Source of the DNA: Eledone cirrhosa
Taxonomy: Eukaryota
Assembly: GCA_964016885.1 (NCBI GenBank)
Contig: OZ024742.1
Coordinates: 177,692,001-177,756,000 of the forward strand
Direction of reading: 5' to 3'
DNA length: 64,000 bases
The notes under the pieces are model-generated. The model ran no database searches and was not told the DNA's origin. It worked only from the letters and a program-made list of their open reading frames with translations. Shown here piece after piece: positions 11,620 to 58,266 of the stretch. Positions within the stretch are counted from its first letter, which is position 1; each line of letters begins with the position of its first letter. Position numbers and translations under genes: made by a program.

Positions 11620-11959
11620 GTTGTTTTTTTGTTTAAAATGAAATTTTGGGTACAAAACCCCAATAATTGGTTATTTAACCCCGAAGGGCCAAATAACGGA
11701 CAGAAAGACCCCTCTCACGAGGAGGAGGGTGTCTTTATCAACAATTTGGTTCAAGTTTTAAACAATTTACAATTGTTTTAACGGTTAATAATTACTATAC
11801 CTTACAGAGCCGAGCCTCCGTCAACCATGGCATTCAATAATAATAATAATAATAAATTGTAATGCACTGGGTGATTGCTGGCTTTGTGCCTGGAGTGGAG
11901 ACAGTTATTAATAATTTCATTCTTAAGCCACGCAATGCTCACATTAAGGAACCACTCAT

Positions 11960-19512: not shown

Positions 19513-19530
19513 TATTTATTTGCACAGACT

Positions 19531-19563: not shown

Positions 19564-19568
<5 letters not shown>

Positions 19569-27184: not shown

Positions 27185-27292
<108 letters not shown>

Positions 27293-27630: not shown

Positions 27631-28095
<465 letters not shown>

Positions 28096-34200: not shown

Positions 34201-34806
34201 AAAATCCTGTTGCTTAGCAACTGTTGCGGCAAATGAAATGTTGTTATTGTTGTTGTTGGTGGTGATGATGGTCTCATTCGTTGTGTTACCACTGATTCCT
34301 TTTGTTGTGTTGTTGTTGTTCTCATTTATTGTGTTGTTGTTGTTGGTTGTGGTGGTATTAGTGTTCGCTACACATACTTCCTTCTGTGTGTGGATACATG
34401 TGACGTTTGTGACGTCAGGTGTGTTCAGTTGCTTACAAGCAGCTGAAGCTTGTTCCTCTTCGAAATGTTGAGGCGATAATGTTGACATTCCTCTGTCCAT
34501 GTTTGCTACTCCCTGATGGAAAAGTAGGCATGGCTTTCCCTTCCCATCTTCTTGTTTTGACAAAGAAGTGGGTGCCTTTGCTTCAGCCATTTTTTAAAAA
34601 TTGAGGTGTTTTGCAAACATTTTTTTTTCGAAAATATTTTGGATGTTTTTGCCCTGAGGGGCACGATATTTTGGGAGACTGACCAGGTCAAAATTTGACC
34701 TGTCAGTCCTTCTACAAATTGGTATGAAAATAAAATTCACAATGACGAAATTCTAAAGAAATTTAAACAAAACTTACCGAGCAAGTTTAACACATGTGTC
34801 CATCCC
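31256..34806 (-). mobile_element. Tx1-like LINE copy A: both ends present, large internal deletion joining ORF1 to the RT part of ORF2 near 33449
   Basis: ORF1 from 34590 with CHKCGKTTHLKAFC; ORF2 remnant with SKAFDRV, RQGCPLS and YADD, frameshifted downstream; 3' GTGGCAAATAAAGAAA. Confidence 0.9.

Positions 34807-34856
<50 letters not shown>
34807..34856. repeat. (GATA)n between Tx1 copies A and B
   Basis: Pure tetranucleotide run. Confidence 0.95.
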
Positions 34857-37800
34857 TGTTTCTTTTATTTGCCACTAGGGCATCAAAAGTGGGACAAGTA
34901 CAAAGGGGGGAGTTTACACAAAAAGGCGTCCTCAATAAGGAGGAGGCAATAACAAAATATAAAAATAAAATAAGATATAACAAAAAATAAAATTTATAAC
35001 AAAATCCTCAATAGAGAGGAGGCGCCTTGGGGGGGTCGCACACACCCCCGAAAAAAGTGTGCAACCCTTCTCCTCAGGAGCACAGAGAAGGGGTGCTCCC
35101 TTGGTCTTTCATCTTCCTCACCTATAGTCTGATGTAGAGTGAAGGCCCATTCACACAGGCCATTCTCGCCACTTTCACCCATCTTTCATAGAAACGGCTG
35201 GGGTGCAGCACCTCTCTCTCCATCCTGATCCTTCTTCCGAAATGATATCGGAAGAAACGGACCAGTTGTTGGCCAGAGAGAAAGGTGCCTGACCTCAGTC
35301 CTTTCAGACGCGTCCACCATACAACCTCTTTCGCCATGGCTATTAAGCACAGAAACACCGCCTCTGCTTCATCTTTGAAGGGGGGAGGCGGCTTGATCAT
35401 TACAATAGACTCGGTGGTCAACCGGATCGGTCCCACCCTTGACAGCAGTTGTTCGACATAGCCCCACAGATCGGCTACGCCCGAGCAGTGTACCAATGCG
35501 TGTGCAACGGTTTCCTCGTCGCACACGCATCTGGGACAGATCTTTTTGGCGGGGTCCCTACCCGGGCGCCCGTGTCTGTAGAGCCTTTCTCGAACGGGTA
35601 AAGCCCCTCGGTAGCACTGCCAGGCCAGGGACTTCTGGAAGTTGTCCATAGGTCCCGGGCTGAATGTCCTACCGAACAGGCTGGCCAGTTCGTCCTCCTC
35701 CATGTCTAGGGCTTCTCCGAGGGCGTCGTCGCACCTGCTGCGTACCAGCCCTCTATAGAATGTTGCGGTGGAGTCTCCACTGATAACCGGATCCGCCTGC
35801 CAGAGGGCGGTGAGCGCCTGGGCACACTCAGTGTGCCAGGCGCCCAGTTTTCTCGGTCTCTGCTTGACCCAGGATTGCAGCTCGGTGAGTGAGACGAGTC
35901 TGGGAAAGGTTCGTCTCACAAACGAGGCCCATACCGGTTGTCCGGTGAGGAATACGTAGAGGTGCCGTAGCCTTAATGCGTGTTTACGCATCATTAACCA
36001 CGGCATCCCCAGCCCTCCTTTCGAAGGGTGTTGACAGCAGATGGATCTCCTCACCATAGGAGCCCGCCTCTTCCAAAGGAATTGGAAGAGCGCGCGCTCC
36101 ATCTTGGTGAGGGTTTCCCTTGGGCAGGGCACTACGGTCAGGCGGTAGTAGATGACGGACGCTATGTAGGTGTTCGCCACCTCCGCCCGACCTTTCAGGG
36201 ATAGTTTGCAACTGGCCCACTTCTGGGTCAGTGCAAACACCCTGTTCGTAACCTCCGCCCAGTGTTTCTCCACCTGGAGGTCCGGTCCGAACCAGACCCC
36301 GAGCAACTTCACCGGGCCCTCCGTCCAGCGTCCGACGACGCCATCGGAGGGCATCGGTCTGCCCCTCCACGTGCCGAGTTGCAAACCGATCGACTTGTCC
36401 CGGTTCAGCTTAGCCCCTGTGAACTTTTCGTACTCCTCCAGTAAGGTGCCGACCGCCTCGATTTCGGAGGCCGTCGACACCATTACTGTCACGTCATCGG
36501 CGTAGGCCGACACCGCTTTCCGCAATCCCGGTTCCAAAGGGATGCCCTGCAACAGCTCCAACTTCCGCAGTAGTGGCTCGAGAGTCAACACATACAGAAG
36601 GGAGGAGAGAGGGCACCCTTGTCGGATGGACCGCGCGATTTTGAACGGCTCCGAGAGGTAGCCGTTCACCTTGACCCTAGAGCAGATGCGGCTGTTGTGC
36701 ATAGCAGTGATCCAGCCCCTGAAAACGGGTCCGAAGCCTGCCGCCGCTAGCACCGCATCCAGGTAACCATGGTCGACCCTATCGAACGCCTTAGATTGAT
36801 CCAAGTTGATCAGAGCCCCACCAAAGCCGGGTTCGTTCCCAACCCTCTCTATGATGTATCGCATGAGGTGGAGGTTGTCATGGATGGACCTGGACGGGAT
36901 AGCGCATGTCTGCGCATCTCCCACCAGGTTGCCCACGACAAGCGCCAACCTCTTTGCTAGCACCTTGGCCAAAATCTGTAACTCTGTATTTAGCAGAGTT
37001 ATGGGCCTGAAGTTACTTATTTCGTCCCCCTTGTTCTCGTCCTTCCTCACTAGCGTGACTACGCCCTTGGTCACAGTACAGGGAATTCTCCCGTTCTGTT
37101 GCCAGTTGCAGTAGACCGCCTCGAGGAGATCGGGGAACAAGTCCGGCATAGCTAGATATAATTCGTAAGGAAGACCATCGAGACCCGGGGATTTGCGTTT
37201 GCCGCATCGGCTCAGCACGTCCTCTATCTCAGCGGCCGAAATCGGCTCCTCGCAGGACTTCGCCTCCCTGTCCGAGAGGCGCGGCAGGCCGTCGAGGTAT
37301 GGACCGAAGTCCACGTTCCCAACCGGCTCTCCGCCCCTCCCGAACAGTCGGGCAAAGTGCCTTTGAAAGGCCTCACACATCTGCTTAGGCTCAAGAATCG
37401 CCGGTCCATCCAGGTCTCGCAAAGACCGGATGGTGGATTTAGTTCCACTGTTGGCCTCTGTCACGCGGGCCCAGCTAACAGCTTTGGTCCCCTCGTTCCC
37501 TAGAGCACGTATTTTACTTCGGACAACGCAGCCTTCGTGCTTCGCGTCGAAAAACTGGCTCAAAGCCGTTCTCGACGCTAGCACTCTGGCCACGTCGCCG
37601 CTTCTAATTACCTCTTCTACTCTATCTATTAGCTCCCTTTCCTTCCTATTCCTATCCGCAGCTAGAACCTTACTAAATTCTATCGAGACTACTCTAATCT
37701 CTCTCTTTAGAGATACCCACCACCTGCTGTTGACGATCGCTCCAGTCAACCGTTCCTTAACTAACGTACTAATCCGATTCCTGTAGGCTCTACTTGCCGG

Positions 37801-39158
37801 CAAGGACAAGTTGAGCTTCCAGTAACCGGGGCCCTGTCTATGAGTTCTGTCAAGGTTGACCATGCAGGTCACTAATTTGTGGTCTGAATAGCCAACCATG
37901 CGCATTTTTGGACAACTTAAAAAGTCCTTATCCTTAATTCTAACTAAGAACCTATCTAGGTACGACCTAGATGATCCGCTACGATTTGCCCAAGTCCAGG
38001 TTGGCGCAGTCGGAAAATCTAGTCGATATCTATCGGCCAGGTCAAATCGACCGATTAACCCTTTGAGGCTATTACACGCCTCTCTATCGGGGCAGGCCCC
38101 TACGTAGTCCCAGCGTGCATCTAGGATACCATTCCAGTCCCCCACTAATAGCAAGGAGCGGGACGTCCCTAGAAAAGTCTCCAGACGATGGAAGAAGTCC
38201 GGTCGCATTGACCCGAAAGGGCCGTAGGCGGCTACCAACCTAAACGCTCCGCCTTTACCACTGCCAAGGTCCAGAACCACTAGTCGACCCTCCGGGTTCA
38301 AATGTACCATCTGTGTTGCGAGACCCAGATGTTTTTGCAGCAGAACGACAACTCCACCTCCACCTCCGGGCTGACAGAGAGATGCGTGCATCTCAAAGTC
38401 ATCAAAGGTGGGGGCCAGCTGTCGCACGTTGCTGATCCGGGCCTCGCAAATAACCATCACATCTATACGTTGTGACCTGAGGTCATTTAGAAGCATTGCT
38501 TGCTTCCAAGTTGAGCCCAGGCCACGCGCATTTAAACAGCCTACTCTTAGCATAGCCATGTTGGTGGTGAAGAGAAAAGGCACTTACCTCTCTGCGTCCC
38601 GGGTATCGGGCTGCACAATTTCCATTAGGGTGGGGGATGGGTTGTTGGGTGGGGTGGTGGTTTGTGGAAGTGTGGGGGCATCAGTGTGTTGTGTGGTTGG
38701 GGAGCTTGGAGTTGTGTGGGTGTTTGGGGAGGGGGTGGGATAGTTTTTTAGGAGGACGCGGTTAATGGGCCCGACGCAGGGGGGACCCACGTCCTCTTTA
38801 AAATTGTTTTTTAAAGTTTTATAGGTGTCCTGTGGGGCCTTAATCATTTTGAGGTGGGGGAAATCCCCTGCCTGGGTGAAGTTAGGCCCTTGTGTTTTTA
38901 TTAGATTGTTGTTGTACACAATGTTTAACAGTTTTTTGTTTCTTGTATTTATGTATGTGTATGCATGTTTTTGTTTTTGTGTGGTGTTTTTTGTTTGCTG
39001 TTGTTGTGAGCTCTTTTGTGTTGGTGTCAGTGTTATGTTTTGGGGAGGGTTTTTTTTCATTTGTGTATCTGAGGTGTGTTTTCTTTTTTTTCTTTTGATT
39101 GTGTGGAAGTGCTCCTCCTCGTCTGACGACGAACTAGGGTCATCTTCCGCGTTGGAGG
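34857..39158 (-). mobile_element. Tx1-like LINE copy B, 5'-truncated in ORF1, intact ORF2
   Basis: ORF1 C-terminus at 38584-39060, uninterrupted ORF2, (GATA)n on both sides. Confidence 0.95.
35122..38559 (-). CDS. Tx1 ORF2: APE endonuclease, reverse transcriptase and CCHC zinc finger (1145 aa from ATG 38559)
   Basis: CLNARGL, GDWN, YLDRF and SDH (APE); SPGLDG, FRPITLLN, KAFDRV, RQGCPLS and YADD (RT); CPRCVCDEETVAHALVHC. Confidence 0.93.
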   Translation of the reverse strand: MAMLRVGCLNARGLGSTWKQAMLLNDLRSQRIDVMVICEARISNVRQLAPTFDDFEMHASLCQPGGGGGVVVLLQKHLGLATQMVHLNPEGRLVVLDLGSGKGGAFRLVAAYGPFGSMRPDFFHRLETFLGTSRSLLLVGDWNGILDARWDYVGACPDREACNSLKGLIGRFDLADRYRLDFPTAPTWTWANRSGSSRSYLDRFLVRIKDKDFLSCPKMRMVGYSDHKLVTCMVNLDRTHRQGPGYWKLNLSLPASRAYRNRISTLVKERLTGAIVNSRWWVSLKREIRVVSIEFSKVLAADRNRKERELIDRVEEVIRSGDVARVLASRTALSQFFDAKHEGCVVRSKIRALGNEGTKAVSWARVTEANSGTKSTIRSLRDLDGPAILEPKQMCEAFQRHFARLFGRGGEPVGNVDFGPYLDGLPRLSDREAKSCEEPISAAEIEDVLSRCGKRKSPGLDGLPYELYLAMPDLFPDLLEAVYCNWQQNGRIPCTVTKGVVTLVRKDENKGDEISNFRPITLLNTELQILAKVLAKRLALVVGNLVGDAQTCAIPSRSIHDNLHLMRYIIERVGNEPGFGGALINLDQSKAFDRVDHGYLDAVLAAAGFGPVFRGWITAMHNSRICSRVKVNGYLSEPFKIARSIRQGCPLSSLLYVLTLEPLLRKLELLQGIPLEPGLRKAVSAYADDVTVMVSTASEIEAVGTLLEEYEKFTGAKLNRDKSIGLQLGTWRGRPMPSDGVVGRWTEGPVKLLGVWFGPDLQVEKHWAEVTNRVFALTQKWASCKLSLKGRAEVANTYIASVIYYRLTVVPCPRETLTKMERALFQFLWKRRAPMVRRSICCQHPSKGGLGMPWLMMRKHALRLRHLYVFLTGQPVWASFVRRTFPRLVSLTELQSWVKQRPRKLGAWHTECAQALTALWQADPVISGDSTATFYRGLVRSRCDDALGEALDMEEDELASLFGRTFSPGPMDNFQKSLAWQCYRGALPVRERLYRHGRPGRDPAKKICPRCVCDEETVAHALVHCSGVADLWGYVEQLLSRVGPIRLTTESIVMIKPPPPFKDEAEAVFLCLIAMAKEVVWWTRLKGLRSGTFLSGQQLVRFFRYHFGRRIRMEREVLHPSRFYERWVKVARMACVNGPSLYIRL

Positions 39159-39214
<56 letters not shown>
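39159..39214. repeat. (GATA)n between Tx1 copies B and C
   Basis: Pure tetranucleotide run. Confidence 0.95.
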
Positions 39215-39215
<1 letters not shown>

Positions 39216-39445
39216 ATTTCTATTTATTTGCCACGAGGGCACAAAAGAAGGGGACAAATACACAGTGGGGGAGTTTACATAAATCGAGTAAAGAAAAAGG
39301 AATAACAATAATAATATAATAATAAAAAGTCCTCAAAAGGGAGGGGGCGCGTTCGGGATTGCACATACCCCCGAAAAGTGTGCAACCCTTTTCGCGGGGG
39401 AAGCCCAGAGAGGAGACGCTCCCCCTTTCCTCTTCACTTCTTCAC

Positions 39446-42400
39446 CTACAGAACAATGTAGAGAGAAGGCCCATTTACACGAGCCATTCTCGCTTCTTTC
39501 ACCCACCTTTCATAAAACTGTCTGGGGCCAAGCACTTCTCTCTCCATCCTGATCCTTCTTCCGAAGTGGTATCAGAAGAAGTAAACCAGGTGATGGCCGG
39601 AGAGAAAGTCACCCGACCTCAGACCTTTCAGGCGCGTCCACCACACAACCTCTTTCATCATGGCTATTACGCACAGAAAGACCGCTTCTGCTTCGTTTCT
39701 GAAGGGAGGAGGCGGCTTGATGTTCACCACAGACTCGGCGGTTAATCGAATCGGCGCCACACGCGACAGCAGTCGTTCGACGTAGCCCCACAGATCGGCA
39801 ACGCCCGGGCAGTGTACCAGTGCATGCGCAACGGTTTCCTCGTCGCGCACGCATCTGGGACAGATCATTTTCGCGGGATCCCTGCCCGGGCGCCCGTGTC
39901 TGTAGAGCTTTTCTCGAACGGGCAGAGCCCCCCGGTAACACTGCCAGGCTAGGGACCTCTGGAAGTTGTCCATGGGTCCCGGGCCGAAAGTTCTACCGAA
40001 CAGGCTGGCCAGTTCGTCCTCCTCCATGTCTAGCGACTCTCCAAGGGTGTCGTCGCCCCTGCTAGCCACCAACCCTCTATAGAATGTCGAGGTGGATTCT
40101 CCACTGACAGTCGGGTCCGCTTGCCAGATAGCCGTGAGCGCCTGGGCACACTCGTTGTGCCAGTTGCCCAGTTTTCTCGGTCTTTGCTTCACCCAGGATT
40201 GCAGTTCGGTGAGCGAGACGAGCTGTGGGAAGGCTCGCCTCACAAACGGGGCCCACACCGGCTGACCGTTGAGGAATACCTGTAGCTGCCGTAGCCTCAA
40301 TGCGTGCCTACGCATCAACAGCCACGGCATACCCAGCCACCCTTTCGAAGGGTGCTGGCAGCAGATGGATCTCCTCACCATGGGAGGCCGCTTCTTCCAG
40401 AGGAACTGGAAGAGCATGCGTTCCATGATTGTGAGCTTTTCCTTGGGGCAAGGCACGACGGTCAGGCGGTAGTAGATGACGGACGCTATGTAAGCGTTCG
40501 TCACCTCCGCCCGACGTTTCAGTGATAGTTTGCACTTGGCCCACTTCTGGGTCAGCGCAAACACCCTGCTCGTCACCTCGCCCCAATTCCTCTCCACCTG
40601 GAGGTCCGGTCCGAACCAGACCCCGAGCAGCTTCACCGGGCCCTCCGTCCACCGCCCGACGACACCGTCTAACGGCATCGGTTTGCCCCTCCACGTTCCG
40701 AGTTGCAAACCGACTGACTTGTCCTGGTTCAGCTTAGCCCCCGTCAGCCTTTCGTATTCCTCCAGTAGGGTGGCGATCGCCCCGATTTCCGAGGCGTCCG
40801 CCACCATTACTGTTACGTCGTCGGCATAGGCCGAGACCGCTTTGTGCAATCCCGGTTCCAGGGGTATGCCCCGCAGCAACTCCAACTTCCGCAGCAGTGG
40901 CTCGAGAGTCAATACGTACAGAAGGGAGGAGAGGGGGCACCCCTGTCTGATGGATCGGGTGATTTGAAACGGCTCCGAGAGGTAGCCGTTTACTTTAATC
41001 CGAGAGTAGATGTTGCCACTGTGCATGGCAGAAATCCAGCCCCTGAAAACGGGTCCGAAGCCCGTCGCCGCTAGCACCGCATCCAGGTAACCATGGTCGA
41101 CCCTATCGAACGCCTTAGATTGATCCAAGTTGATCAGGGCCCCACCAAAGCCGGGTTCGTAGCCAACCCTCTCTATGATGTATCGCATGAGGTGGAGGTT
41201 GTCGTGAATGGACCTGGACGGGATAGCGCATGTCTGCGCGTCTCCCACCAAACCACCCACCACAAGCGCCAACCTCTTCGCCAACACCTTGGCCAAAATC
41301 TGTAACTCTGCATTCAGCAGAGTTATGGGCCTAAAGTTACTTAAGTCGTCCCCCTTGCTCTCGTCCTTCCTCACTAGCGTGACCACGCCCTTGGTCACAG
41401 AACAGGGAATTCTCCCGTTCTGTTGCCAGTTGCAATAGACAGCCTCGAGGAGTTCGGAGAACAAGACCGGCATAGCTAAATAAAGTTCGTATGGTAGACC
41501 ATCGAGACCCGGGGATTTGCGTCTGCTGCATTGGCTGAGCGCTTCCCCGATTTCAGTGGCTGTGATTGGCCTTTCGCAGCAGTCCGCTTCGCCGCTCGAA
41601 AGACGCGGTAGACCGTCGAGGTATGGACCGAAGTCCACATCCCCGTCCGGCCCCCCGCCACCTCCGAACAGTCGAGCAAAGTGCCTTTGAAAGGCCTCGC
41701 ACATTCGCTCAGGTTCAAGGATCACCCGTCCATCCTGGTCTCGCAAAGACCGAATGGTGGATTTAATCCCACTCTTGGCTTCTGTCACGCGGGCCCAGCT
41801 AACAGCTTTGGTCCCCTCGTTTCCTAAAGCACGTATTTTACTTCGGACAACGCAGCCTTCGTGCTTCGCGTCAAGGAACTGGCTCAACGCCGTTCTCGTC
41901 GCTAACACTCTGGCTACGTCTCCGCTCCTAATCGCCTCTTCTAGTTTATCTGTTAACTCCCTTTCCTTCCTATTTCTATTCGCCGCTAGTTCCTTACTGT
42001 AACCTATCGAACTTACTCTAATCTCTCTCTTTAGAGATACCCACCACCTACTGTTGACGATCGCTCCCGTCAACCGCATCTTAACTAAGCTACTAATCCG
42101 GTTTCTGTAATCTTTCTTTGTCGGTAAGGACAAGTTCATCTTCCAGTAACCGGGACCCTGTCTATGCGTTCTATCAAGGTTGACCACGCAGGTCACTAAT
42201 TTGTGATCTGAATAGCCAACCATGATCAGTTCTGGACAACTAAATACGTCCCTATCCTTACTCCTAACCAAAAACCTATCTAGGTACGATCTAGATTGTC
42301 CACTGCGGTTTGCCCAGGTCCAGGTTGGCGCAGTTGGACAATCTAGTCGAAATCTATCGACCAGGTCGAATCGATCGAGTAACCCCTTGAGGCTGCTACA

Positions 42401-42888
42401 CCCCCCTCTATCGGGACATGCCCCTGCATAGTTCCAACGCGCATCTAGGATTCCATTCCAGTCCCCCACTAAAAGCAGGGAACGCGACGTTCCTAGAAAA
42501 GTCTCCAGACGCTGGAAGAAGTCGGCTCTTTCCGCCCCGAAGGGAGCATAAAGACCGACCAGTCTGAAAGCCCCGCCTTCACCGCCTCCGACGTCCAGCA
42601 CCAGTAATCGACCCCCCGGGTCCGAGTGAACAATCTGTACGTCGAGAGTCAGACGTTTATCCAGCAGTACGGCAACTCCCCCCCCCCCCCCGCCTCCGGG
42701 TTAACAGAGAGATGCGTGCATCTCAAAGTCATCGAAGGCGGGCGCCAGCTGTCTCACGCTGCTGATCCGACTCTCGCAAATAACCATCACATCTATACTT
42801 TGTGACCTGAGGTCACTTAGAAGCTTTGCTTGCTTCCAAGCTGAGCCCAGGCCACGCGCGTTCAAACAGCCAACTCTCAATTGATCTA
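39446..42888 (-). pseudogene. Tx1 ORF2 of copy C (APE-RT-CCHC)
   Basis: A 1009-aa open stretch aligns with copy B ORF2. The start codon position reads ATA, and there is a premature stop 42 codons before the terminal TAG. Confidence 0.85.
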
Positions 42889-44719
42889 TTTTGGTGTTGA
42901 AAGTGAAGAAAGAAAAGCACTTACCTCTCCGGGTTGCGTAATTTCCATGGCATCAGGTGTGTTGGGTGGAGGGATGTTTTGTGGTGGTGTGGGGGTACAC
43001 GTGTGTGGTGGGGTTGGGGTATTTGGAGTTGTGTCAGGGAGAGGGGCGGTTATGGGGAAATCTTTCAAGAGGACGCGATTCAACGGTTTTAAACAGGGGG
43101 GGGGCTCACGTCCCGTCTAAATTGTTCTTTTAAGGAACGATAAAGGTCCAGAGGGACCTTTATCATTTTTAAATGGGTGAAGTTCTCTGTTGAGATAAAG
43201 TTTGGCCCTTCGGTCTGCACCATAGGGTTATTGTTTATTAATTTAACCAGTTTTTTGTTTTCTTTATTTATATATGTGTATTGCAACGTCTTTTTTGTGA
43301 TGCTGTCAATGTTTCGGAGAGGGGAGGCGCAGATTTATTTTTGTTTGTTGAGGGTGGGGTGTTTTTGATTGGAGTTGGTGTTTGTGTGTGGGTTATTTGT
43401 GGTGTGCTGGGTGTGTGTTTTCTTTTTTTTCTTTTAACTTGTCTGAAGGCTTCTCCTCCTTCTTCTTCAGAAGTTGGGGGAAACTCTTCAGCGCTAGGTG
43501 GGAGGGACGTGTTGTGTGGTTGTTTTTTTTTTGCGGGAGGGGTAGATTTGTTACTGTTTTTTTTATTATTTGTTTGGAATGGGTTTTGTGGTGGTGGTGG
43601 TAATGTTTGTGTCGTGCTTGTGGTTGGTGATGGTGGTGGTGATGTTTGTGTTGTGGTTGGTGGTGGTGATTTTTGTGCCGTGCTTGTGTTTGGAGCTGGT
43701 GGTGGTGATGTTTGTGTTGTGTTTGTGGTTGGTGGTGTCTGTATTTTGTTTGCTGTGTGTGGTATTAGTGTATTTTTGGAGGTGGGTGGTGTTGGTGTAC
43801 TGTTTGTGGTGGGTGTGGGCAATAGTTCTTTTTGGGGGATACGTTTCGGGCAGTTAGCCTTAACGTGTCCCCTTTCCATGCATAAATAGCATGCTGGTCT
43901 TCTCCCCTCTACAATTATGTCTATTGGGGTAAGGTCATCCAGCCAGATGCGATCCGGGATTTGTGCTATTCTTTCGGGCCTCATTTGGACTAGTATGTCG
44001 AGGCCCATTCCCAGGAACGCATCTCCAGTTGCCTTCCCCATTGACAGCATTGTGTCTTCGCCCATATCAATGAAGCCAGCAATAGCCCACCAGAAGTCCA
44101 TTGTGGGCAGCATTGTTTTTACTTTTACTCTCTGTGTTCTTCTACACATGTAGGAGGGATAGAAGCTATATGTTGTCGATGAGAGTGGGCTTAGGGAAAG
44201 CTTCTCCGCCGTTTCCCTGTCTCTTGTTAGGACCGAAATGCTGCCATAGAGTCGGTCCTTTCGTATGAAGAGAATATTCTTCATATAGTCTTTTAGGACT
44301 AACTCTATTTCCATTTGGCTGGGCTGTGCTGGCTTTCTTGTCTGGTTCAGTATAGTTCTGTAGAGAACTGTGTTTTCTGCTCTGGCTTTCTTGAATTCTG
44401 GGGGGGAGTTAATGGAAAACATTCCGTTCTCCCCCAAAACAATGTGTTTCTTTGCTTCGGCCAGTTTTTCTCTGGCGGCAGTTAGGTCAATTGGTGTGTA
44501 TGTAATGGATTGTTTTGTTTTCTGGGCGAAAGTTGCCCTGTTGTTATTTGTATTATTTTCTGTTTGTTTGTTTTCTGTTTGCTCATTTTCCTTAACATTT
44601 GTTTTTTCATTTTCTTTGTTTGTTTCATTGTCTAATTTTGTTGTAATTATTTTTTGTTCTTCAGACTTGGGGGGCGTGGCAGAGCTAATGGCAGACAGGT
44701 CTGCCATCTTTTCCGCCAT
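42886..44719 (-). pseudogene. Tx1 ORF1 of copy C
   Basis: Zinc knuckle and P/T-rich tract; the C-terminus is split into ORFs 43089-43286 and 42886-43083. Confidence 0.8.
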
Positions 44720-44921
44720 GCTGCCAAGAAAGAAATTTTTCGGCAAAAATAGATATTTATTTTACCCCCTAAAAAGGGGGTAAATGCAAAAATGTTTCCC
44801 TAAAAAACAGGGGTTAGTGTTCCAAATGTGTTGCACTGAAAAATTTATCCGGTACTTACAATAGTAAGGGTAAATCCCGATGGAATAGCGGAGCCGATGT
44901 GAAGCGTGTCTTACTCTATCA

Positions 44922-44950
44922 AGATAGATAGATAGATAGATAGATAGATA
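44922..44950. repeat. (GATA)n between Tx1 copies C and D
   Basis: Pure tetranucleotide run. Confidence 0.95.
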
Positions 44951-47850
44951 TGTTTCTTTTATTTGCCACCAGGGCATCAACAGTGGGACAAGTACAATCG
45001 GGGGAGTTTACAAAACAAGGCATCCTCAATAAGGAGGAGGCAATAACAAAATATAAAAAAAAATAAAATATAACAGAATAAAATTATTAACAAAATCCTC
45101 AATAGAGAGGAGGCGCCTTGGGGGGGCGCACACACCCCCGAAAAAAGTGTGCAACCCTTTTCCTCAGGAGAACAGAGAAGGTGTGCTCCCTTGGTCTTTC
45201 ATCTTCCTCACCTATAGTCTGATGTAGAGTGAAGGCCCATTCGCACCGGCCATTCTCGCCACTTTCACCCATCTTTCATAAAAATGGCTGGGGTGCAGCA
45301 CCTTTCTCTCCCTCCTGATCCTTCTTCCGAAATGATATCGGAAGAAACAGACCAGTTGTTGGCCAGAGAGAAAGGTGTCTGCCCTCAGTCCTTTCAGACG
45401 CGTCCACCATACAACCTCTTTCGCCATGGCTATTACGCACAGAAACACCGCCTCTCCTTCGTTTTTGAAAAGGGGAGGCGGCTTGATCGTTACAATAGAC
45501 TCGGTGGTTAACCGGATCGGTTCCACCCTTGACAGCAGTTGTTCGACATAGCCCCACAGATCAGCAATTCCCGAGCAGTGTACCAATGCGTGTGGAACGG
45601 TTTCCTCGTCGCACACGCATCTGGGACAGATCTTTTTCGAGGGGTCGCTACCTGGGCGCCCGTGTCTGTAGAGCCTTTCTCGAACGGGCAGAGCCCTTCT
45701 GTAGCACTGCCAGGCCAGGGATCTCTGGAAGTTATCCATGGGTTCCGGGCTGAATGTCCTACCGAACAGGTTGGCCAGTTCGCCTTCCTCCATGCCTAGG
45801 GCTTCTCCGAGGGCGTCGTCGCACCTGCTAACCACCAGCCCTCTATAGAATGACGAGGTGGATTCTCCACTGACAGTCGGGTCCGCCTGCCAGAGAGCCG
45901 TGAGCGCCTTGGCACACTCGGTGTGCCAGGTGCCCAGTTTTCTCGGTCTTTGCTTGACCCAGGATTGCAGCTCGGTGAGTGAGACGAGTCTGGGAAAGGC
46001 TCGCCTCACAAACGGGGCCCACACCGGTTGACCGGAGAGGAATACCTGGAGGTGCCGTAGCCTTAATTCGTGTTTACGTATCATTAGCCACGGCATCCCC
46101 AGCCCTCCTTTCGAAGGGTGTTGACAGCAGAGGGAGCTCTTCACCATAGGAGCCCGCTGCTTCCAAAGGAATTGGAAGAGTGCGCGCTCCATTTTGGCGA
46201 GCGTTTCCCTTGGGCAAGGCACAACGATCAGGCGGTAGTATATGACGGACCCTATATAAGTGTTCGCCACCTCCGCCCGACCTTTCAGGGACAGTTTGCA
46301 CTCGGCCCACTTCTGGGTCAGTGCAAACGCCCTGTTCGTTACCTCACCCCAGTTCTTCTCCCGGTTCAGCTTAGCCCCTGTAAACCTTTCGTACTCCTCC
46401 AGTAAGGTGCCGATCGCCCTGATTTCCAACTTCCACAGCAGTGGCTCTAGAGTCATTACATACAGAAGGGAGGAGAGAGGGCACCCTTGTCGGATGGACC
46501 GCGAGATTTCGAATGGCTCCGAGAGGTAGCCGTTCACCTTGACCCTAGAGCAGATGCGGCTGCTGTGCATGGCCTTGATCCAGCCCCTGAAAACGGGTCC
46601 GAAGCCTGCCGCCGCTAGCACCGCATCCAGGTAACCATGGTCGACCCTATCGAATGCCTTAGATTGATCCAAGTTGATCAGGGCCCCACCAAAGCCGGGT
46701 TCGTTCCCAACCCTCTCTATGATGTATCGCATGAGGTGGAGATTGTCGTGGATGGACCTGGACGGGATAGCACATGTCTGCGCATCTCCCACCAGGTCGC
46801 CCACGACAAGCGCCAACCTCTTTGCTAGCACCTTGGCCAAAATCTGTAACTCTGTATTTAGCAGAGTTATGGGTCTGAAATTATTTATATCGTCCCCCTT
46901 GTTCTCGTCCCTCCTCACTAGCGTGACTACACCCTTGGTCACAGCACAGGGAATTCTCCCGTTCTGTTGCCAGTTGCAGTAGACGGCCTCGAGGAGATCG
47001 GGGAACAAGTCCGGCGTAGCTAGATATAGTTCGTATGGAAGACCATCGAGACCCGGAGATTTGCGTTTGCCGCATTGGCTCAGCACGTCCTCTATCTCAG
47101 CGGCTGAAATCGGCTCCTCGCAGGACTTGGCCTCCCTGTCCGAGAGACGCGGCAGGCAGTCGAGGTATGGACCGAAGTCCACATCCCCAACCGGCTCCCC
47201 GCCCCTTCCGAACAATCCGGCAAAGTGCTTTTGAAAAGCCTCGCACATCTGCCTAGGTTCAAGGATCACCCGTCCATCCTGGTCTCGCAAAGACCGGATA
47301 GTGGATCTGCTCCCTCTTTTGGCTTCTGTCACGCGGGCCCAGCTAACAGCTTTGGTCCCCTCGTTTCCCAGAGCACGTATTTTGCTTCGGACGATGCAGC
47401 CTTCGTGTTTCGCGTCGAAGAACTGGCCCAGGGCCGTTCTCGACGCTAGCAGTCTGGCCACGTCGCCGCTTCTAATTGCCTCTTCTACACTATCTACCAA
47501 CTCCCTTTCCTTCCTATTTCTATTTGAGGCTAACTCCTTACTAAATTCTATAGAGACTACTCTAATCTCTCTTTTGAGAGATCCCCACCACCTGCTGTTG
47601 ACGATGGCGCCCGTCAACCGCTCCTTAACTAAAGTGCTAATCCGGTCCCTGTAAGCCTTACTTGCCGGTAAGGACAGGTTGAGCTTCCAGTAACAGGGTC
47701 CCTGTCTATGAGTTCTGTCAAGGTTGACCATGCAGGTCACTAACTTGTGACCTGAATAGCCAACCATGCGCATTTTTGGACAACTTAAATAGTCCTTATC
47801 CTTAATTCTAACTAAGAACCTATCTAGGTACGACCTAGATGATCCGCTAC
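44951..47850 (-). mobile_element. Tx1-like LINE copy D (same family as B), 5'-truncated in APE, two in-frame deletions including YADD
   Basis: 853-aa ORF highly similar to B with junctions KLE|IRAIG and KLNRE|KNWGE; 3' UTR nearly identical to that of B. Confidence 0.93.
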
Positions 47851-47894
<44 letters not shown>

Positions 47895-48025
47895 CATTTC
47901 TATATTAGCCACAACGGCACAAAAGAAGGGGACAAATACAAATGCGGAGTTTACATACAGGTATATGAAAATAAAACTATAAATAAAATAACAGATAACA
48001 ATTGAAATCTCCAATAGGGGGGAGG
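47851..48025 (-). mobile_element. (GATA)n (47851-47893) plus 3'-end remnant of a fifth Tx1 copy (E)
   Basis: TTTCTATATTAGCCACAACGGCACAAAAGAAGGGGACAAATAC matches the 3' end of copy C. Confidence 0.8.
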
Positions 48026-48327
48026 TGTTACACAGGTCAGGATTGGAGAGGTTAAGGGACATTGTCCGGAAAAGGAGACGGCGGTTTGCGGGCCACATCA
48101 TTGGTTTGCCGCAGATCGACCTGCTCATATTGCCATGGATTGGGTACCAGAAGGTGGCAGGAGAGAACGGGGAAGACCACGAAAAACATGGCGGAGCACA
48201 TTCAGGGAGGACCTGCAGGAGATGGGAATTACCTGGAGAGGTGCTAGAAGGGCCGCCAGTGACAGGATCAACTGGAGGAGGCTCGTCGCCCAATGATCCA
48301 CAAGGGACTGGAGGAACTAAGACTAAG

Positions 48328-48328
<1 letters not shown>
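48026..48328 (+). mobile_element. 3' fragment of an RTE-type LINE
   Basis: LRDIVRKRRRRFAGHII, then after a frameshift DRPAHIAMDWVPEGGRRERGRPRKTW..EDL, with a short TAAGAC-type tail. Confidence 0.7.
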
Positions 48329-48385
<57 letters not shown>

Positions 48386-48882
48386 ATGTATGTGTGTGTG
48401 TGTGTGTGTGTGTATACGTCAAATTATAATATAGAGTTAGAAATTCACAATAAATCCCTATAATCATGGGAGCTCAAGGAAGAGAGACCGAGCTCATTAT
48501 AAATCGTAGGAAAGAGAGAAGGCACATAATAAATTACGTCAGATCATAGGGGATATCTATGTATATAAACACATGCATGTTGATGTGATTCCCAAAAGAA
48601 TGAAAACATTGTAAACATAAATGTTAAAATTAGGAAATTTAATTATAATAAAAAATGCCCTTGAGGCTCAAATATAAATATTGTAAATAACAATTGAAAT
48701 GAAAAAAAATATATATATTAAATTAATTTAACAATAACCTCGTTTCAGAATATTATATTCAACAACACATAATATTGATAAAATGTTACCAGTAGCGAGT
48801 ATAATGTTTTATTTCAAATCGTCCAGTTAATTTTTTTTTTTTCAGTTTTGGTTTTACTTTTCATTTAATTTTTTTTATTTTT

Positions 48883-51800
48883 TTATTGCTTTTTATATCT
48901 AAAAAACTTCATCATAAACAATGCTTTTAACTTTTCATCTTTTGTGTGATAATAAAGATTATTGGGATCTCCCAATTTTGAGAGTGATACATATAGTTGT
49001 CCATTAGAAAATACTTCATTTTTAAGATTGATACCAACTTTTTTTAATGTTTGACCATGTGGTTTATTTATTGTCATAGCAAAAGATAGTTTAACTGGAA
49101 ATTTTAATCTTGTAAACCTCACTGGCTCCTCTGCAAGTAAGTTAATTCTTGGTAATAATACTAATTCATTTTTGTACTTTCCATTTAGTTTTTTTTTACT
49201 TCAATTACATTATTTGTAAGGGATTCCACTATTAACCTCGTTCCGCTGCATAATCTTGGAGTTTGTAAATTTCTCAAAACAATAATTCGAACTCCTTTCT
49301 TCAAATTCAATTCGTGTGGTGGAAATCCCGATAATTCTAATAAATTTAAGAACTCAACCGAAAAATCTACTGTTTCATTTGTATCCATTACTTGATCTAT
49401 CGAATTGTAGGTTCTTAATCTATGTTCTTATACTGTGTTAAGTAATCACATATTAATAGCATCAACATTATCATTTTTAGCAGCTAAAATTATTCTGCCT
49501 GACATCCACTCTGTATTAGTGTAATTAATTGCAATGTCCTCAAAAATAAATGTTTCTAAATCAATTTCATTCTCAATTTCCCACTGTCATCACTTGAGAT
49601 ACTTTTTTCTCCTATTTCTAATAGTTTACTTGCAAGTCATTATGTTTTAGAAAATGCACTTTCATATTAATCCTTAATGACAATTTGTGGAATAATGGCC
49701 ATAAATAGGATGCCTTGATAGATGCATCACTTCTTGGTGCTAATGCAAGTATTTGTCTAAAATCACCAGCTAGTAAATTATTCTTTTTAATCTCTTTCAA
49801 TGTTTTAACAACAGCCTCTAAAATCGTTTTCTGTGACATTGTAACTTCATCCAATACTAATAAATTACAATTTTCTAAGGTTATCCAAATTCGACTTCTT
49901 TTTCTAATTAATGTTGTGAATTCATCAAGTATTGATGATGAAAAGAGTAATTTAAACATTGAATGTACTGTTTTTCCATTATCTATTAAAGATGCTGCTA
50001 TTCCTGAAGTAGCAACGGCTATACTAATATAATCATTCATTTTATTGTTTGTTAGTAAAAGATTCATCAAAAATGTTTCTCCAGTTCCACCTGGAACATC
50101 TAAAAAGTATAATGTTTGTTCATTTCTATTGGCTATTGAATCATTGATTGTAGTGTAAATAAGTCTTTGTTCTTCATTCAACAATGGTTCATTCACATCT
50201 ACAAAGTTTCTTATTTCTAAGTGTTCATTTACTCAATATTGTTTACTTCTAGTTCTTCACAAGCTGTCATGTAGTCCTATTTCAATCAAAGCCTTTTGTC
50301 CTATTTCACATAAAAGAGTTTTAAGTTTGTGTAAAATTTCACTGTATAATATTTCTTCATCGTTTATTTTTTCTTGTTGATTGTTTGTCAACTGATTTAG
50401 AATATCAACTGACATTAGTTGTTTCAATTCTTCATATAATACTACAGGACCAGAAGGATTACAATGAATTAATGCAAGTTTGATAGAAACAGTTTCTTTA
50501 AGTGCTAGTTTTAGACGATTGTCATCTTCTAATAATCCTCTTGCCAAACATGCTCCTTTAAATGTATTATAGACAATACCTTCATGTGTTTTCCCCTCTC
50601 TGAAAGATTTTGGACTTCTTACTACGTTCAGCAATAATCTGAGACAATAGCATTCTGTTTGATTAGGTGGTACAGTGTAAATTCTAGAACATGTTTTCAA
50701 TTGTATATGTTTTTGAGTTTATTATTATTGTTGCTGTTCTTCCTCCATTTTCTGTTTTTCTCCGTCTATATAAGGGATATCCTGTGACATCTGCCCTGGT
50801 TTCATTAATCAAATATTTTGGGTAATTTTTCCCAGATTTTTTATCATTCATACATGGACATTGCGGATTTAATAAACCACATGGACCATGGATCATTTGT
50901 GTAGCAACAATATCATAAAGATTAGGATCATTAATTGGATTGGGAATTTCTGCAGAGATTACTGAATCTAATTAATTTGGATAAATTGTTTGCTCTAACC
51001 AAAGTAAGATATAACAATGTGGTAAGCCTCTTTTCTGCCATTCTACTGTGTATATATATATGCCTTTATTTTGTGAAATATTCCACCTCCCTTGTCAACC
51101 AATATTTTCATCATCTTGTTTAACTTTTGCTTGAAAGAATTCTTGTAATTATGTCGTGCATATCTTCGATTTTTTTACCTTTGTATAGGTTTTCCATGAT
51201 CTCATTCCATTTAGGATTGCAAGTGAATGTTATAACTAGATCAAACCTACCATATTCTCTCACATAACACATTGCATCTTGAGTTCTTTCCTTCCAATAC
51301 ATTGGACTTCCAACAAAAGTAGAAGGTAAAATTACAGCCCTACCCTACTTCCTGTGCATTGAATATTCCTTCATTATTTAGAGAATCTTTTAAAAGAGAC
51401 CCTTAGGTTGGTTCGGTGCTTTTTATTGTAAATAAACCGTTCAAACTCAATTTTGGCATACATATCAACTAAAAACATTTGGAACAATCGTTTACATCTT
51501 ACTATTTGATTTCAAGTATTTCTTAGCTGTAAATAATATGCATAATATTGCCTGCGTGTAACATTCTTATCTGGGATTGTTTGATTTGTATTTGGGTTGT
51601 TTGACGGTAAATCCAACGAATAGCGATCATTTCTTCTCCAATGAATCAAAGAATATTGTAATGGATCAAATGATCTATGTAATTTATTGATTTTCTTACA
51701 ATGTTATCTTTATAAGTAAAAATGATGTTTCTTTGTGGAAGTTCGGTTACAACCATTACTATTCCCACATCGTTAGATACTCGGTCATTGTACCATATTG

Positions 51801-52862: not shown

Positions 52863-53546
52863 TATTTATATAGATTATAGTGAATATGTTAGAACATCAG
52901 ATAGTATTTGCCGTCACACCTTTCTTCGCTCTGAGACGAAACAAATCCTTCCGAGGTCAATTATACTTTTGATCCTTTTAACGTCGATAAATGGAGTAAC
53001 TGCCCAATAGTGATGCTAAGGCTACCACTATATTTCTCACTTACAAACACTTCTCTCTCTCTCCATCTCTCTCTCTCTCCCTCCCTGTAAAACCACCTCT
53101 TGTCAGACATAAATGGGGATGAGCTCTGCCAAAGATTACATATGACCCATTAATAGATTTCTTTATGGGACAGCAATCAGTTTGTGAATTTCTCAATTGA
53201 TTTCTTTTCAAAATAGATATTACATAGGATTTTTGTTTGTATGTTATGTATTATTATATATGAAATGAATATTCATATGCACGAGCCTCGGAAATTGAAC
53301 TTTATTTCAACGCCCCACCTTTATCAGCCTGTCCTTCCGTCCGTAACGTCAATCAACAACAACCATGATCGTGAATTCCCTGCAATAGCAGAAAAGTGCA
53401 TTCGGCGTTACTATAAGCCTTTGGACACATTGTCAAGTGTAATTGACAAAGAAATAGTTAAATTCTCGTGAGATGTGATGTGGGATGGTCATATGAAAGA
53501 TAATTTAAATAAATTATCAAGTATAAATTGAGAAAATAAATTAAAT

Positions 53547-53627
53547 TCTCGCGAGACAGATTCGAGTTAAGGATAACAGTTAATTTCGAACTACAGTCCT
53601 CCGCTCTACCAACTGAGTTATCGCGAG
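53547..53627 (-). pseudogene. tRNA-Tyr(GTA) pseudogene with an 8-nt T-arm deletion
   Basis: Acceptor stem, anticodon and intron are intact; the T stem is missing. Confidence 0.85.
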
Positions 53628-55020
53628 AACACTGACAAACAATTTCAAGATAAAAGCTCTTAAGTGATATTAATGGATATTAATGGATAATATCATGATT
53701 TCAGAACAATAATTTAAAACATCATAGTAACAGTTTACATGCACGAATACACACAACAGGACATACACACGCGCACAGAAACACACACATTTATATGATA
53801 TATTATATAACGTGAAGTCTACTTTTTCACAGCAACCATTATATATACATATGAGAGCGAAGAACTGCCAGTATCGGTAAGGGCGTCGGAAAACATGCTT
53901 TACATTCAGAGTTTAAATCCTACCAAGCTTAGCTTTGCCTTCCATCCTCACCAGCTCGATACAATAAATTATAAGTAGTTCACAGGGGTCTATTTAATCA
54001 ACATTCCCTCCCCACAAAATTGTCAGCCTTGTGCCTGAATCATATACCTACCCCTGCGCCTTTTGTCATTGCTTAATTTTGTTTTTATCATTTTTTTTCC
54101 TATATCCATCATTGTACAATGTCTTTTTGTAAAATATAGTTGACATAATATGTATATGTCAAAATATCATCAACAGATGTCATCAACAGATGTCATAAAC
54201 AAAATGTCATCAGCAGATGACAAAATATAATTTTTTTTCATTAGTGAATAAAAAAAAGTATTAATATTAGGAATGGATAGTGATAGAATCTTAAGAGTGC
54301 TGGAAATAATATTTTGCATCTATATTGCCCTAGCTCTGTACGTTTGCTCAGTCACTGTCCTCCTAACTGTGATAAGTTCCTTGTTTTGTATATATTTCTT
54401 TTCTAAATTGTTTCATACTTAAATATATGTAACTCTACAATCTGTTGTATCCCAAATAAAAGAACAACACAAACTTTATGTATGACCCATAAACAAATTT
54501 CTTCATGCTGTAGAAATCTGTTTCTTTGGCCGACTGGATTTTCGAATTAATTTCTTTTAAAAATAAATATAACTGACTTTTCTTTTGTGTGTTAATTATG
54601 ACGCGATTGAGATGGCCATTCATATTAACGAGCCTCGGAAAGTACCTCACTTTTATTCAGCGCCTCTCCCTTATCATCTCGTAATCCCATACCGTTCATC
54701 AACAACAAACATAAACGGGAATTTCGTGCAATAGCAGAATAACAACCTACGACATCATTATGAGTCTTTATATTACATTGACAAGTATAATTGACAACAA
54801 CAAAAAGGATTAAATCCTGCGAGACGGGTTGTAAGATAGACATTCAGATGAAAGAGCCTCGTGAAATGGACTGACGTTTTCCCAACGAGTCACTCTCACC
54901 AGTTCCGTGTAATCAACAGCAAACACGAAAGGAAATTTCCTGTAATACCAGAAAATTAACGAAGTTATTATCAATTTTTACATAGATTGTGTAGTAAAAA
55001 TGGAAAGAGAAAAATGAATT

Positions 55021-55109
55021 TCTCGCGAGACGGAGTCGAACCATCGACCTAAGGATAACAGACATTTTCTCGCTACAGTCCTCCGCTCTACCAACTGAGC
55101 TATCGCGAG
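55021..55109 (-). tRNA. tRNA-Tyr(GTA) with 16-nt intron, apparently intact
   Basis: CTCGCGA TA GCTC AGTTGGTA GAGC G GAGGA CT GTA G [CGAGAAAATGTCTGTT] A TCCTT AGGTC GATGG TTCGACT CCGTC TCGCGAG A. It has C1-G72/A73 Tyr identity and a T5 terminator ~6 nt downstream. Confidence 0.88.
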
Positions 55110-55887
55110 AACGATAAGATAAAATATCTCGTCTGATGGTAATTGATAATATCACGCTGTGAGAAAAATAATTTAAAACATCATGGGAAAAGTGTACACA
55201 TATACATACAGTTGCACAGATAAACACACACATGTTTTTGATACATTCAATGGCGTCAAGGCTACTACTAAACATCAACAATTATGTATGCACAAAAGAG
55301 CGTGGATCGACATCGGTAGGGAATCGGACAAAATGCATTCCAGCATATAGTTACGTTCTGAGTTCAAATCCCACAAAGTTTAGCTTTGCGTATCATCCTT
55401 ACGGGGTCGTTAAAATAAAATACCAGTAGGGCACGTGAAACGATTTAGTCCAGTTTCCCTTCCCCGCAGAATTGTTGCCCATGTGTCTAAATCAGAAACC
55501 AACATTAATATTAGTAATGCGGAGTGACAGAAACTTAAGAGAGCTGGAAAAAGAACTTTGTGACCCACAAAAAGATTTCTACATGGGGCAGCAGTCCGTT
55601 TTCTTGACCGACTGTATTTCTGAATTAATTTTTCTAAAAACTAGATATTACATAGGAATTTATTATATGTTAATAAACCTTCGAATGTGAGATGAACATT
55701 CATATGAACGAGACTCAGGAAAAGAACAGACACTTTTTAGCGGACACACACTCCCATCCTGTTCGCCAGTTCCGTCAATCAACTACAAACAGGAACTTGG
55801 ATTTGGGGCAAAAGCACAAAACGTACCAAGGACAATATTATGAAGCTTTAGATATATTTCCATAAATTGACAAAAGAAAACTGAATT

Positions 55888-55976
55888 TCTCGCGAGACGG
55901 ATTCGAACAACCGACCTAAGGATACCTGTTGATTTCGAACTACAGTCCTCCGCTCTACCAACTAAGCAATCACGAG
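55888..55976 (-). pseudogene. tRNA-Tyr(GTA) variant, probable pseudogene
   Basis: Full length with intron, but A9>T, a T-stem mismatch and an altered B-box. Confidence 0.75.
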
Positions 55977-56198
55977 AACACTGGCGGAGCACACGAAATA
56001 AAATCTTTTATCTGATGATATTGGATTGTATCACGACGTAGGAACAATAAATTAAGCCGTCATATGAATAGTTTACTTACAAAGACATACAGTTGCACAG
56101 AGAAACATTCACACACACTTTTATACAATACACCCACCATAATATGTACAAAACTGGACAACATTATCAAGATATATGATTTCTTATACTATTATAGT

Positions 56199-57509
56199 CT
56201 TCTTCTTGTGTCCACAAGAGAATCAGTTACAAACCTTGGCCATGTGGTTCCGCCACAGCTAAACACATGGCTGTCATTTCTCATTAAACTCTGCCACTCC
56301 AATGCAGGGGGAATGTCAGGAGGTGCTGCGCAGTCTGTCATTCGATGCCGCAGTCACACACAACGTCCCTATCCTTTAAATATCCCCATTTTGCAAGATT
56401 GACTTTTGCAGGTGCCACACCATAACTTAGTCTGTTTAGGAATTTCCACACTGCATTGTTTGAATCTGCTCCCGGGAGCAGTGCCTCGCTCCTCTATAGC
56501 TCCATTGTTGTTATAGGCAGGAGGTTTTTAACTTTTTCTTCAGTACTTATGCTTGATTGTCCAAGGTTCGTGATGCTCTTTAGGAAAGTTTTCATGGTTT
56601 TAAGGCAACTTTTAGCTGGAACATGGCCGAAGAGAGGTTGTTTTTGATTTGTAGTCTGTTGTTGATGATCTTTCTTGTTCTGCACTTCATCGTATCTCTG
56701 ATGGGGCTATGCCTGTCGGGTGTAGATTTCTGGCATCCCGTGATGATGCAGCAGCTAGCATTGAGGACGTGATCTAGCTTCTGGGCATGGACAGCTCACT
56801 CTCATACTGGGACCACTCGGCAGCTGAGTAGCAGAGCGCTAGTGCAGTTGATTTCAGAGTCTGTGGGTTTGCATCCCAGGTTGTGCCAGTGAGCTTGCCG
56901 ATGATGTCCCTCGCATTCACTTTGCACTTTGTACTCTCAAAGTGGATCTTAAAAGAGAAACACGAGTCCAGGATTGCGCCTAGATAGACTGGGTACTCAA
57001 AGTGATCAATGGAGGTTCCTGACCAGTTGAACTTCAGTCGGCGCTTGGCCTCAGGGTTTCGAGGGTAGAAAGCACACAGATGCGTCTTGGATGGATTTTC
57101 ACGCAGGTGGTTCTCTTCATAATAAGTTGTTAGCTTTTCCAGGGCATTGGAGAGCCTATCTTTCACAACTTTGAAATCAGAGTCTTGTGTACCTATTCCA
57201 AAATCGTCTGCATAGCTGGAGCCGCGATTGTCTGCACCTTTTGGTTGGTCGTTTAAAGACAACTGGTGCAATCACACATCATTGTAGGAGGCGATTCTAG
57301 AGTCTTCGCCGCCTGCCTTTCTTCCCTCCTAGCTCAACAAAGAAGTGCCTGTTTTCAAGCATGATTCCAATCAACTCTGTCAGACAGGAGTCCCTTGCTA
57401 AAGAGTCGTGTGTGGTTGAGAGTGTCATAGGCAGCTAAGAGGTCGACAAACTCCACACCGGTAACCACCCCCCACCCCCTCATGGCCGTCCTCGATGTAC
57501 TGGGTCATG
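56199..57509 (-). mobile_element. 5'-truncated Ingi/Vingi-like LINE fragment, copy 1
   Basis: YADD, NPSKT..F..RN.EAKRRL, YLGAILD and ALALCYSAAE motifs; (GAA)n tail on the minus strand. Clade assignment is tentative. Confidence 0.75.
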
Positions 57510-58177: not shown

Positions 58178-58266
58178 TCTCACGAAAAGGATTCGAACCA
58201 TTGACCTACGGATAACAGTCATCCACACGCTACAGTCCTCCCCTCTACCAACTAAGCTTTCGCGAG
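58178..58266 (-). pseudogene. tRNA-Tyr(GTA) pseudogene
   Basis: 89-nt homolog with several stem-breaking substitutions. Confidence 0.8.

Follow-up and report, generated by a model that had tools for sequence, protein, structure and literature searches.

We analysed a 64,000-nt stretch of the Eledone cirrhosa genome, hereafter the window, in which four LINEs form a head-to-tail array, D-C-B-A, with (TATC)n between the members. Copy C is the full-length member of this array. Its main parts, together with a donor motif of the neighbouring copy B, are as follows.

39215..44921, minus strand: full-length Tx1-type LINE, copy C
44923..44950, minus strand: (TATC)n target tract 5' of copy C
43268..44719, minus strand: copy C ORF1, which encodes a CX2CX4HX4C knuckle and has a premature stop in this copy
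39572..42700, minus strand: ORF2 of copy C, the part that is open (APE, RT, zf-RVT); start region and end broken
42919..42924, minus strand: GTAAGT, a second donor motif of copy C, lying between its ORF1 and ORF2
38587-38582, minus strand: second GTAAGT donor motif of copy B, over the ORF1 stop

ORF2 of copies B and C matches PF03372, PF00078 and, below its curated cut-off, PF13966. The CX2CX4HX4C zinc knuckle of ORF1 is found in families C, A and E, and a Pfam search with ORF1 returned no significant family. Both frames of copy C itself, ORF1 and ORF2, are broken. The APE endonuclease and the two ORFs rule out a Penelope-like element, which would have a GIY-YIG endonuclease or none, a single ORF and pseudo-LTRs. 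Membership in Tx1 is a putative assignment, drawn from anatomy and microsatellite targeting rather than from a tree with named references; a protein homologue search returned 81 proteins, one of them with a generic name.

All 30 C copies that we fetched, the window's own copy included, start at the identical base after TATC repeats of varying length. Insertion is microsatellite-specific, C copies lying after TATC repeats and E copies after (TTA)n. In this respect both families resemble Kibi and Koshi, reported as microsatellite-targeting Tx1 elements (PMC4494074): all are APE-RT LINEs in short tandem repeats, the targets of C and E being (TATC)n and (TTA)n. The start of copy C, TTGATAGA (window 44916-44928, minus strand), is complementary to the upstream TCTATC target repeat; a GATAG start also occurs in the sister families F8 (one copy), F11 and F17, and may bear on precise 5' junctions. 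The TATC tract with TGATAG at the 5' end of the element is itself acceptor-like.

A DNA search gave 663 candidates in the 3.0-Gb genome, and the 40 that were scored are 99-100% identical; the leader is part of a young family. Family E, a more distant relative at about window 7900-11837 (minus strand), is also young and high-copy, with 2222 first-look candidates, and is flanked by (TTA)n and not by (TATC)n.

The intron-like segment of the leader

An earlier note, made from the letters alone, had described a GTAAGT...CACTAAC...TAG motif at 44859-44800, 5' of the ORF1 ATG. We confirm this motif; the segment is exactly 60 nt long and lies in the leader of the element. The features of the leader are listed here, positions within it being counted from the DPE-like motif.

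44904..44911, minus strand: DPE-like motif AGACACGC, a 6/8 match to RGWCGTKY and a putative promoter element
44860..44921, minus strand: leader exon 1, 62 nt long and without an ATG, ending in ACTATT
44800..44859, minus strand: GT-AG intron-like segment, 60 nt, of the relocated type (donor at +51)
44854..44859, minus strand: splice donor GTAAGT, used at a sister copy
44813..44819, minus strand: branch-point-like CACTAAC, a candidate by motif
44798..44812, minus strand: stretch holding the pyrimidine tract CCCTGTTTTT and the acceptor TAG (44802-44800)
44761..44784, minus strand: hairpin 2, a 10-bp inverted repeat, with a similar hairpin in most sister leaders
44721..44735, minus strand: alternative acceptor candidate, a pyrimidine tract and CAG (44723-44721) that abuts the ORF1 ATG

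The GT donor, branch point, pyrimidine tract and YAG of a U2-type intron are all present in the segment, and the ORF1 ATG at 44719 follows about 80 nt 3' of its end. CACTAAC aligns with the 5' arm of hairpin 1 (TTGACCC/TTAACCC) of the sister families. The acceptor TAG lies within a predicted 5-bp stem, CCCTG/TAGGG (-6.5 kcal/mol), which is a reduced form of hairpin 1 and in which the AG is predicted to be paired (P unpaired <=0.05). A further candidate acceptor is the AG inside hairpin 2, near 44769. Rfam covariance models, scanned over 30000-50000, gave no match at E <=1 over 44700-44921. No upstream ATG inside the segment makes splicing necessary for translation in C; exon 1 of other families has ATGs. 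As a background rate, the parts of the window outside Tx1 elements (85,200 nt over both strands) contain 36 GTRAGT hexamers, of which 1 is accompanied by CTRAY and YAG within 85 nt.

That the leader is part of the element is borne out by the 30 fetched copies, which share their start and all keep the GT and the AG. The signals are also kept across divergent families, as shown below. Conservation within family C is, on the other hand, uninformative, with best matches 99-100% alike and mostly scattered single changes among 29 distinct copies, and we rejected it as proof of selection. Taken by itself, this pattern would also suit a chance origin, in which an AT-rich leader happens to resemble an intron and the copies share the resemblance by descent only.

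Retention of the segment in genomic copies

Splicing of a leader followed by integration is known from human L1. Its 5'UTR donor at +97 is reported to be functional and conserved, with most RNA unspliced and acceptors more than 500 nt away, and the splicing is described as a dead-end by-product that leaves intron-less copies, about 1.8% of full-length elements (PMC5860796). We sought such copies in five ways, all of them exact-match patterns, which diverged copies escape. With exact 15-nt flanks, the whole assembly holds 464 intron-plus copies (gap of 55-65 nt) and no intron-less copy with a gap of 0-30 nt. A variant end of exon 1, ACTATA, occurs in 48 further copies, and the segment is kept in all 11 of those viewed. 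The ratio of intron-plus to intron-minus copies, for which the earlier note had called, is thus 464 exact-flank plus 48 variant-end copies to 0 in family C, and 70 to 0 in family A by exact-flank patterns. For C, 0/512 sets a 95% upper bound of 0.6% and differs from the 1.8% rate of human L1 SpIRE97/622 with P = 9e-5.

Exon 1 is followed by something other than GT at only two places, one with a GT>GC change and the other with 1 nt deleted. These are small mutations that leave the segment in place, and copies spliced from the donor to other acceptors are therefore also excluded. In agreement with this, exact-flank patterns found no genomic copy spliced from the donor to the alternative acceptor before the ORF1 ATG, and a pattern search that had no positive control of its own found no base other than G before exon 2. 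SpIRE-like integration in the form of intron-less copies was not encountered by exact-flank patterns in family C (0/~512) or in family A (0/70).

Run contigs and use of the donor

Of seven listed runs, all in the form of Logan contigs, we compared four with 44690-44921, bearing in mind that contigs drop minor forms. X6 and X3 are the only runs that cover the segment, X7 covers only 44690-44792 and X2 has no match. The X7 contig is at least 99% identical to the leader and ORF1 start over 44690-44792, in a run labelled as another organism; this may reflect a close relative, a mislabelled run or a transfer. No joint across 44800-44859, as excision of the 60-nt segment would leave, was present in the contigs of any of the four runs, from which minor forms are dropped. 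In X6 (88 Mb of contigs) one contig with a depth of 381 runs unspliced across the whole segment, indicating that the retained form is present and is probably not the minority.

Another X6 contig, of 904 nt (depth 78), follows exon 1 for 30 nt up to the variant end ACTATA and then enters a single-copy exon. Its 30 loose letters have one genomic place, with one mismatch at the junction base; the host exon at the matched place is 71 nt long, with TTTTAG before it and GTAAGT after it. A full-length C copy of the ACTATA type lies 9,466 nt upstream of this exon on the same strand (G000:C3:31436422-31430711). The extra A of the ACTATA copy accounts for the mismatch at the junction base, and since this copy, its GTAAGT and the TTTTAG stand exactly at the junction, the joined form is an exact GT-AG splice from the leader donor. 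The joined form is absent from the assembly, and X6, the kind of which is not on record, is therefore probably RNA; the joined form is not listed for X3.

The leader donor works, being joined at a sister copy to a host exon about 9.5 kb away, in one contig of one run. None of the three candidate acceptors of the leader is used in this contig. As contigs drop minor forms, splicing of the internal intron may go on at a lower level. The search for junctions thus had a divided outcome: a splice from the donor is seen in one contig, its partner is a host exon, and the contigs hold no joint across the 60-nt segment.

At the same C copy (G000:C3:31436422-31423708, loci L072-L074) the host exon to which exon 1 is spliced contains an ATG. 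A candidate next host exon encodes a Walker A motif and has weak NTPase matches, UreG among them, which are not diagnostic; we did not adopt UreG as the name of the host gene, although it is among the best of these weak matches. The LINE at G000:C3:31436422 may supply the first or an internal exon of a host gene.

Leaders of the sister families

Because LINEs stack in the same repeats, we took leaders from 160 ten-kb stretches beside C and A copies and from the search loci, which together gave 16 full-length leader types. From the first set we dropped 5 of 129 ORF1 loci for want of a microsatellite upstream, as well as 4 of 18 clusters that were incomplete or mis-anchored. In the later set 14 of 55 ORF1 loci were unassigned; two of them became the new types L207 and L221, and the rest were incomplete, edge-cut or without a leader. 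Two leaders of other families in the window are the following.

34712..34777, minus strand: GT-AG segment of the copy A leader, 66 nt, donor at +19, acceptor TTTGTAG
11733..11805, minus strand: family E leader, (TTA)n-flanked, donor GTAAGG at +20

The leaders are collinear, with a DPE-like motif, an interval of 96-103 nt (13 of 13 measured), hairpin 1, usually hairpin 2, and the ATG. In Doc, F, G, I and jockey, RGWCGTKY is reported to occupy +29 to +36 relative to the transcription start (PMC1636488), and four sister families (F7, F10, F13, F16) carry an 8/8 match, AGACGTGT. If the DPE-like motif stands at +29, the start of transcription would lie within the (TATC)n tract upstream, and a +19 donor would then be near +49 of the transcript, close to the 46 nt of Penelope. 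The suggestion that the intron overlaps the internal promoter found no direct support, in that the sole common promoter-like motif, the DPE-like one, lies upstream of the donor and the position of the segment differs between families.

Two donor positions were observed. Eight types (F2, which is family A, F4, F5, F6, F9, F10, F17 and F12, which is family E) have their donor at +19/20, and in seven of them a TTTGTAG or TTTATAG acceptor follows 66-71 nt on, just 5' of hairpin 1. Family E has no YAG 50-80 nt from its donor, only an AAG at 73 nt; an older E variant, L122, has TTGTAG near the acceptor position. Six types, which we call relocated (F0, which is family C, F7, F8, F13, F16 and L221), carry CC, AG or CG at +19, their donor lying instead at +49 to +52. 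Each of these donors is followed, 58-63 nt on, by a YAG within the 3' strand of hairpin 1 (54 in one F13 copy with a small deletion), the lengths for the F16 copies and L221 having been counted by eye. The older acceptor is missing in five of the six and kept in F8. F16 was missed in the first tally, and 4 of its 5 copies were later found to have GTGAGT; L221, with a +50 donor and a 60-nt segment, was found after the pattern was set. GTAAGA near +42 also occurs in F10 and F16. Neither site holds a canonical donor in F11 or L207; both are single copies, and F11 appears to have an internal deletion. Overall, the donor precedes a YAG by 58-71 nt in 13 of the 14 donor-bearing types.

A donor and a YAG 50-80 nt apart were present in 11 of 14 leader types; 500 dinucleotide shuffles averaged 0.70 such types and never exceeded 4, and the antisense strand had 1 of 14. 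Two caveats apply: the motif was defined with the data already in view, and the families are related. Fisher's test of 5/5 versus 0/8 leader types gives P = 8e-4, a value that overstates the case because of this relatedness. TRAY branch-like motifs were present in only 6 of the 12 acceptors scanned, which counts against a selected intron. The ORF1 cores of the first 14 types are only 24-65% identical, and such divergence, together with the excess over shuffles and the exact use of the donor in the contig, leaves the chance reading already disfavoured and, in our estimate, highly improbable.

The constant spacing could also be read as that of DNA elements of the internal promoter, with splicing as a harmful by-product. 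The distance from the DPE-like motif to the donor is 19 nt in seven types and 20 nt in the eighth, and the human L1 donor at +97 is reported to lie in a RUNX3 site (PMC5860796). However, the donor lies 30 nt further on in six types while the spacing from DPE to hairpin is unchanged where measured, the variants GTAAGT, GTGAGT, GTAGGT, GTAAGA and GTAAGG fit pairing with U1 better than a site for one factor, and spliced integrants, which L1 leaves, are absent here. We consider this reading improbable.

Resolution of the ORF1 tree is poor, with stars on 2 of its 11 branches and no fewer than 2 forced changes, and the six relocated types may therefore represent only one or two events. A count of independent relocations on this tree was not decisive, giving 5 changes against a shuffled mean of 4.7-4.8. 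Under midpoint rooting all relocated types fall in one starred clade that excludes E, A, F9 and F17, and on this basis the donor position of these four families would be ancestral. Leader and ORF1 relationships disagree in places: the leaders of F2, F4 and F6 (L031, L089, L093) are alike, and their ORF1 cores are 37-54% identical, which suggests swapping of leaders or ORF1 between families.

In all five relocated types that we folded, the AG of hairpin 1 is predicted to be paired (P unpaired <=0.08). The stem of hairpin 1 is kept in the +19-donor families as well. Since the relocated acceptor is the 3' strand of this stem, its conservation need not reflect splicing. This brings in a reading in which only the donor is selected: U1 docking near the promoter would guard a long A-rich and otherwise intronless transcript against premature termination or polyadenylation, the AG would be part of the hairpin, and the segment would practically never be excised. 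Such a reading accommodates the pairing of the AG in 5/5 relocated types, the zero count of intron-less copies, contigs limited to the retained form and a distal host-exon splice, the family E donor without a YAG at 50-80 nt, and the second donor at the end of ORF1; a 5' splice site has also been reported to block Restrictor-mediated termination (PMC12211998). It leaves unexplained why TTT(G/A)TAG stands 5' of hairpin 1 in seven of eight +19-donor types and is missing in five of six relocated ones, and why the relocated donors lie 58-63 nt before a YAG. We regard selection on the donor alone as the main rival to a selected intron, a possible but rather unlikely account.

Discussion

On balance, we lean by a small degree towards the explanation that the 60-nt segment is a real, selected minimal spliceosomal intron which aids expression, and that only unspliced RNA is reverse-transcribed. 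In such a scheme, an internal Pol II promoter with the DPE-like motif would start RNA at or just upstream of the 5' end of the element, and U1 would bind the leader donor. With the AG placed in or next to hairpin 1, only part of the RNA would be spliced to the acceptor. This part would then be exported or translated efficiently, as with the Penelope leader intron in a reporter, while the unspliced share would serve as the template for target-primed reverse transcription. This choice of template would require that spliced RNA be rare in the germ line or not packaged in cis.

The tracking of the older acceptor with the +19 donor, and the position of relocated donors about 60 nt from another YAG, are expected if a spliceable unit is selected. 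Such coupling appears less expected if only U1 docking matters. Against the selected intron we count the retained X6 contig and the distal host-exon splice as the only forms seen, family E without a YAG, and F11 and L207 without a donor. Moreover, if the proteins were made from spliced RNA, cis-preference would lead one to expect intron-less copies, and that none were found also argues against it. The proposal of the earlier note that spliced RNA is translated and unspliced RNA is the template therefore stands in part: retention, use of the donor and the cross-family signals agree with it, and the contigs show only the retained form. A broader claim, which we advance tentatively and hold to be doubtful at present, is that a lineage of APE-RT LINEs depends on a leader intron and escapes cis-preference, in that ORF1p and ORF2p, made from spliced mRNA, would copy unspliced RNA only. 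Strong selection on the intron would then have led to the replacement of a lost donor 30 nt downstream, with a hairpin acceptor about 60 nt away.

The closest known cases come from Penelope-like elements. In D. virilis, Penelope is reported to have a 75-nt leader intron 46 nt after the start, with spliced and unspliced RNAs coexisting, and deletion of this intron abolishes reporter protein and not RNA (PMC2377424). Chlamys-3_cRei is reported to have a 5'UTR intron, and intron retention after retrotransposition is treated there as a Penelope-like peculiarity of unknown significance (PMC8557442). Copy C shares with both a leader intron near an internal promoter that is kept after retrotransposition, in its case an intron-shaped segment near a putative promoter. 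It differs from them as a two-ORF APE-RT LINE, whereas they are GIY-YIG elements with pseudo-LTRs, and splicing is proven for them, whereas in the Tx1 leader only use of the donor is seen.

With human L1, family C has in common that it is an L1-group LINE with a conserved, functional 5'UTR donor. Unlike L1, it has no spliced copies among about 512; across family C and its sister families the unit measures 58-71 nt, and the positions of donor and acceptor vary together. Antisense introns of TART, as well as introns in L1, Tad and kangaroo-1 transcripts, have been listed (PMC1636488). The TART introns are similarly short (many 53-67 nt) and of similar size and spacing in divergent subfamilies, but they are antisense and thus, unlike that of the Tx1 leader, do not conflict with the copying of sense RNA. 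L1-Tx1 families are listed as active in Octopus vulgaris, and the word 'intron' does not occur in that paper (PMC13282606). Among titles and abstract openings, with partial coverage of the literature, we found no retained 5'UTR intron described for Tx1 or L1-group LINEs.

If the selected-intron explanation is true, a young, high-copy LINE whose leader intron is under selection and which has left no intron-less copies would offer a natural test of how template RNA is chosen. It would equally test how an intronless retroelement gains the benefits of splicing, with natural variants of two donor positions at hand. Host transcripts could also be altered by the hundreds of young copies, given that at one locus the donor is spliced to an exon of the host.

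Elsewhere in the window, 674-2690 holds a tandem array with a unit of about 510 nt and TA-rich repeats, and an inverted copy at 674-892, and many SINE-like repeats of 100-140 nt occupy 18706-20531, 26116-30879 and 53517-62664. A tRNA-like Rfam match lies at 30771-30859, and several stop-to-stop open frames of 160-415 aa are found on the plus strand at 12151-16989.
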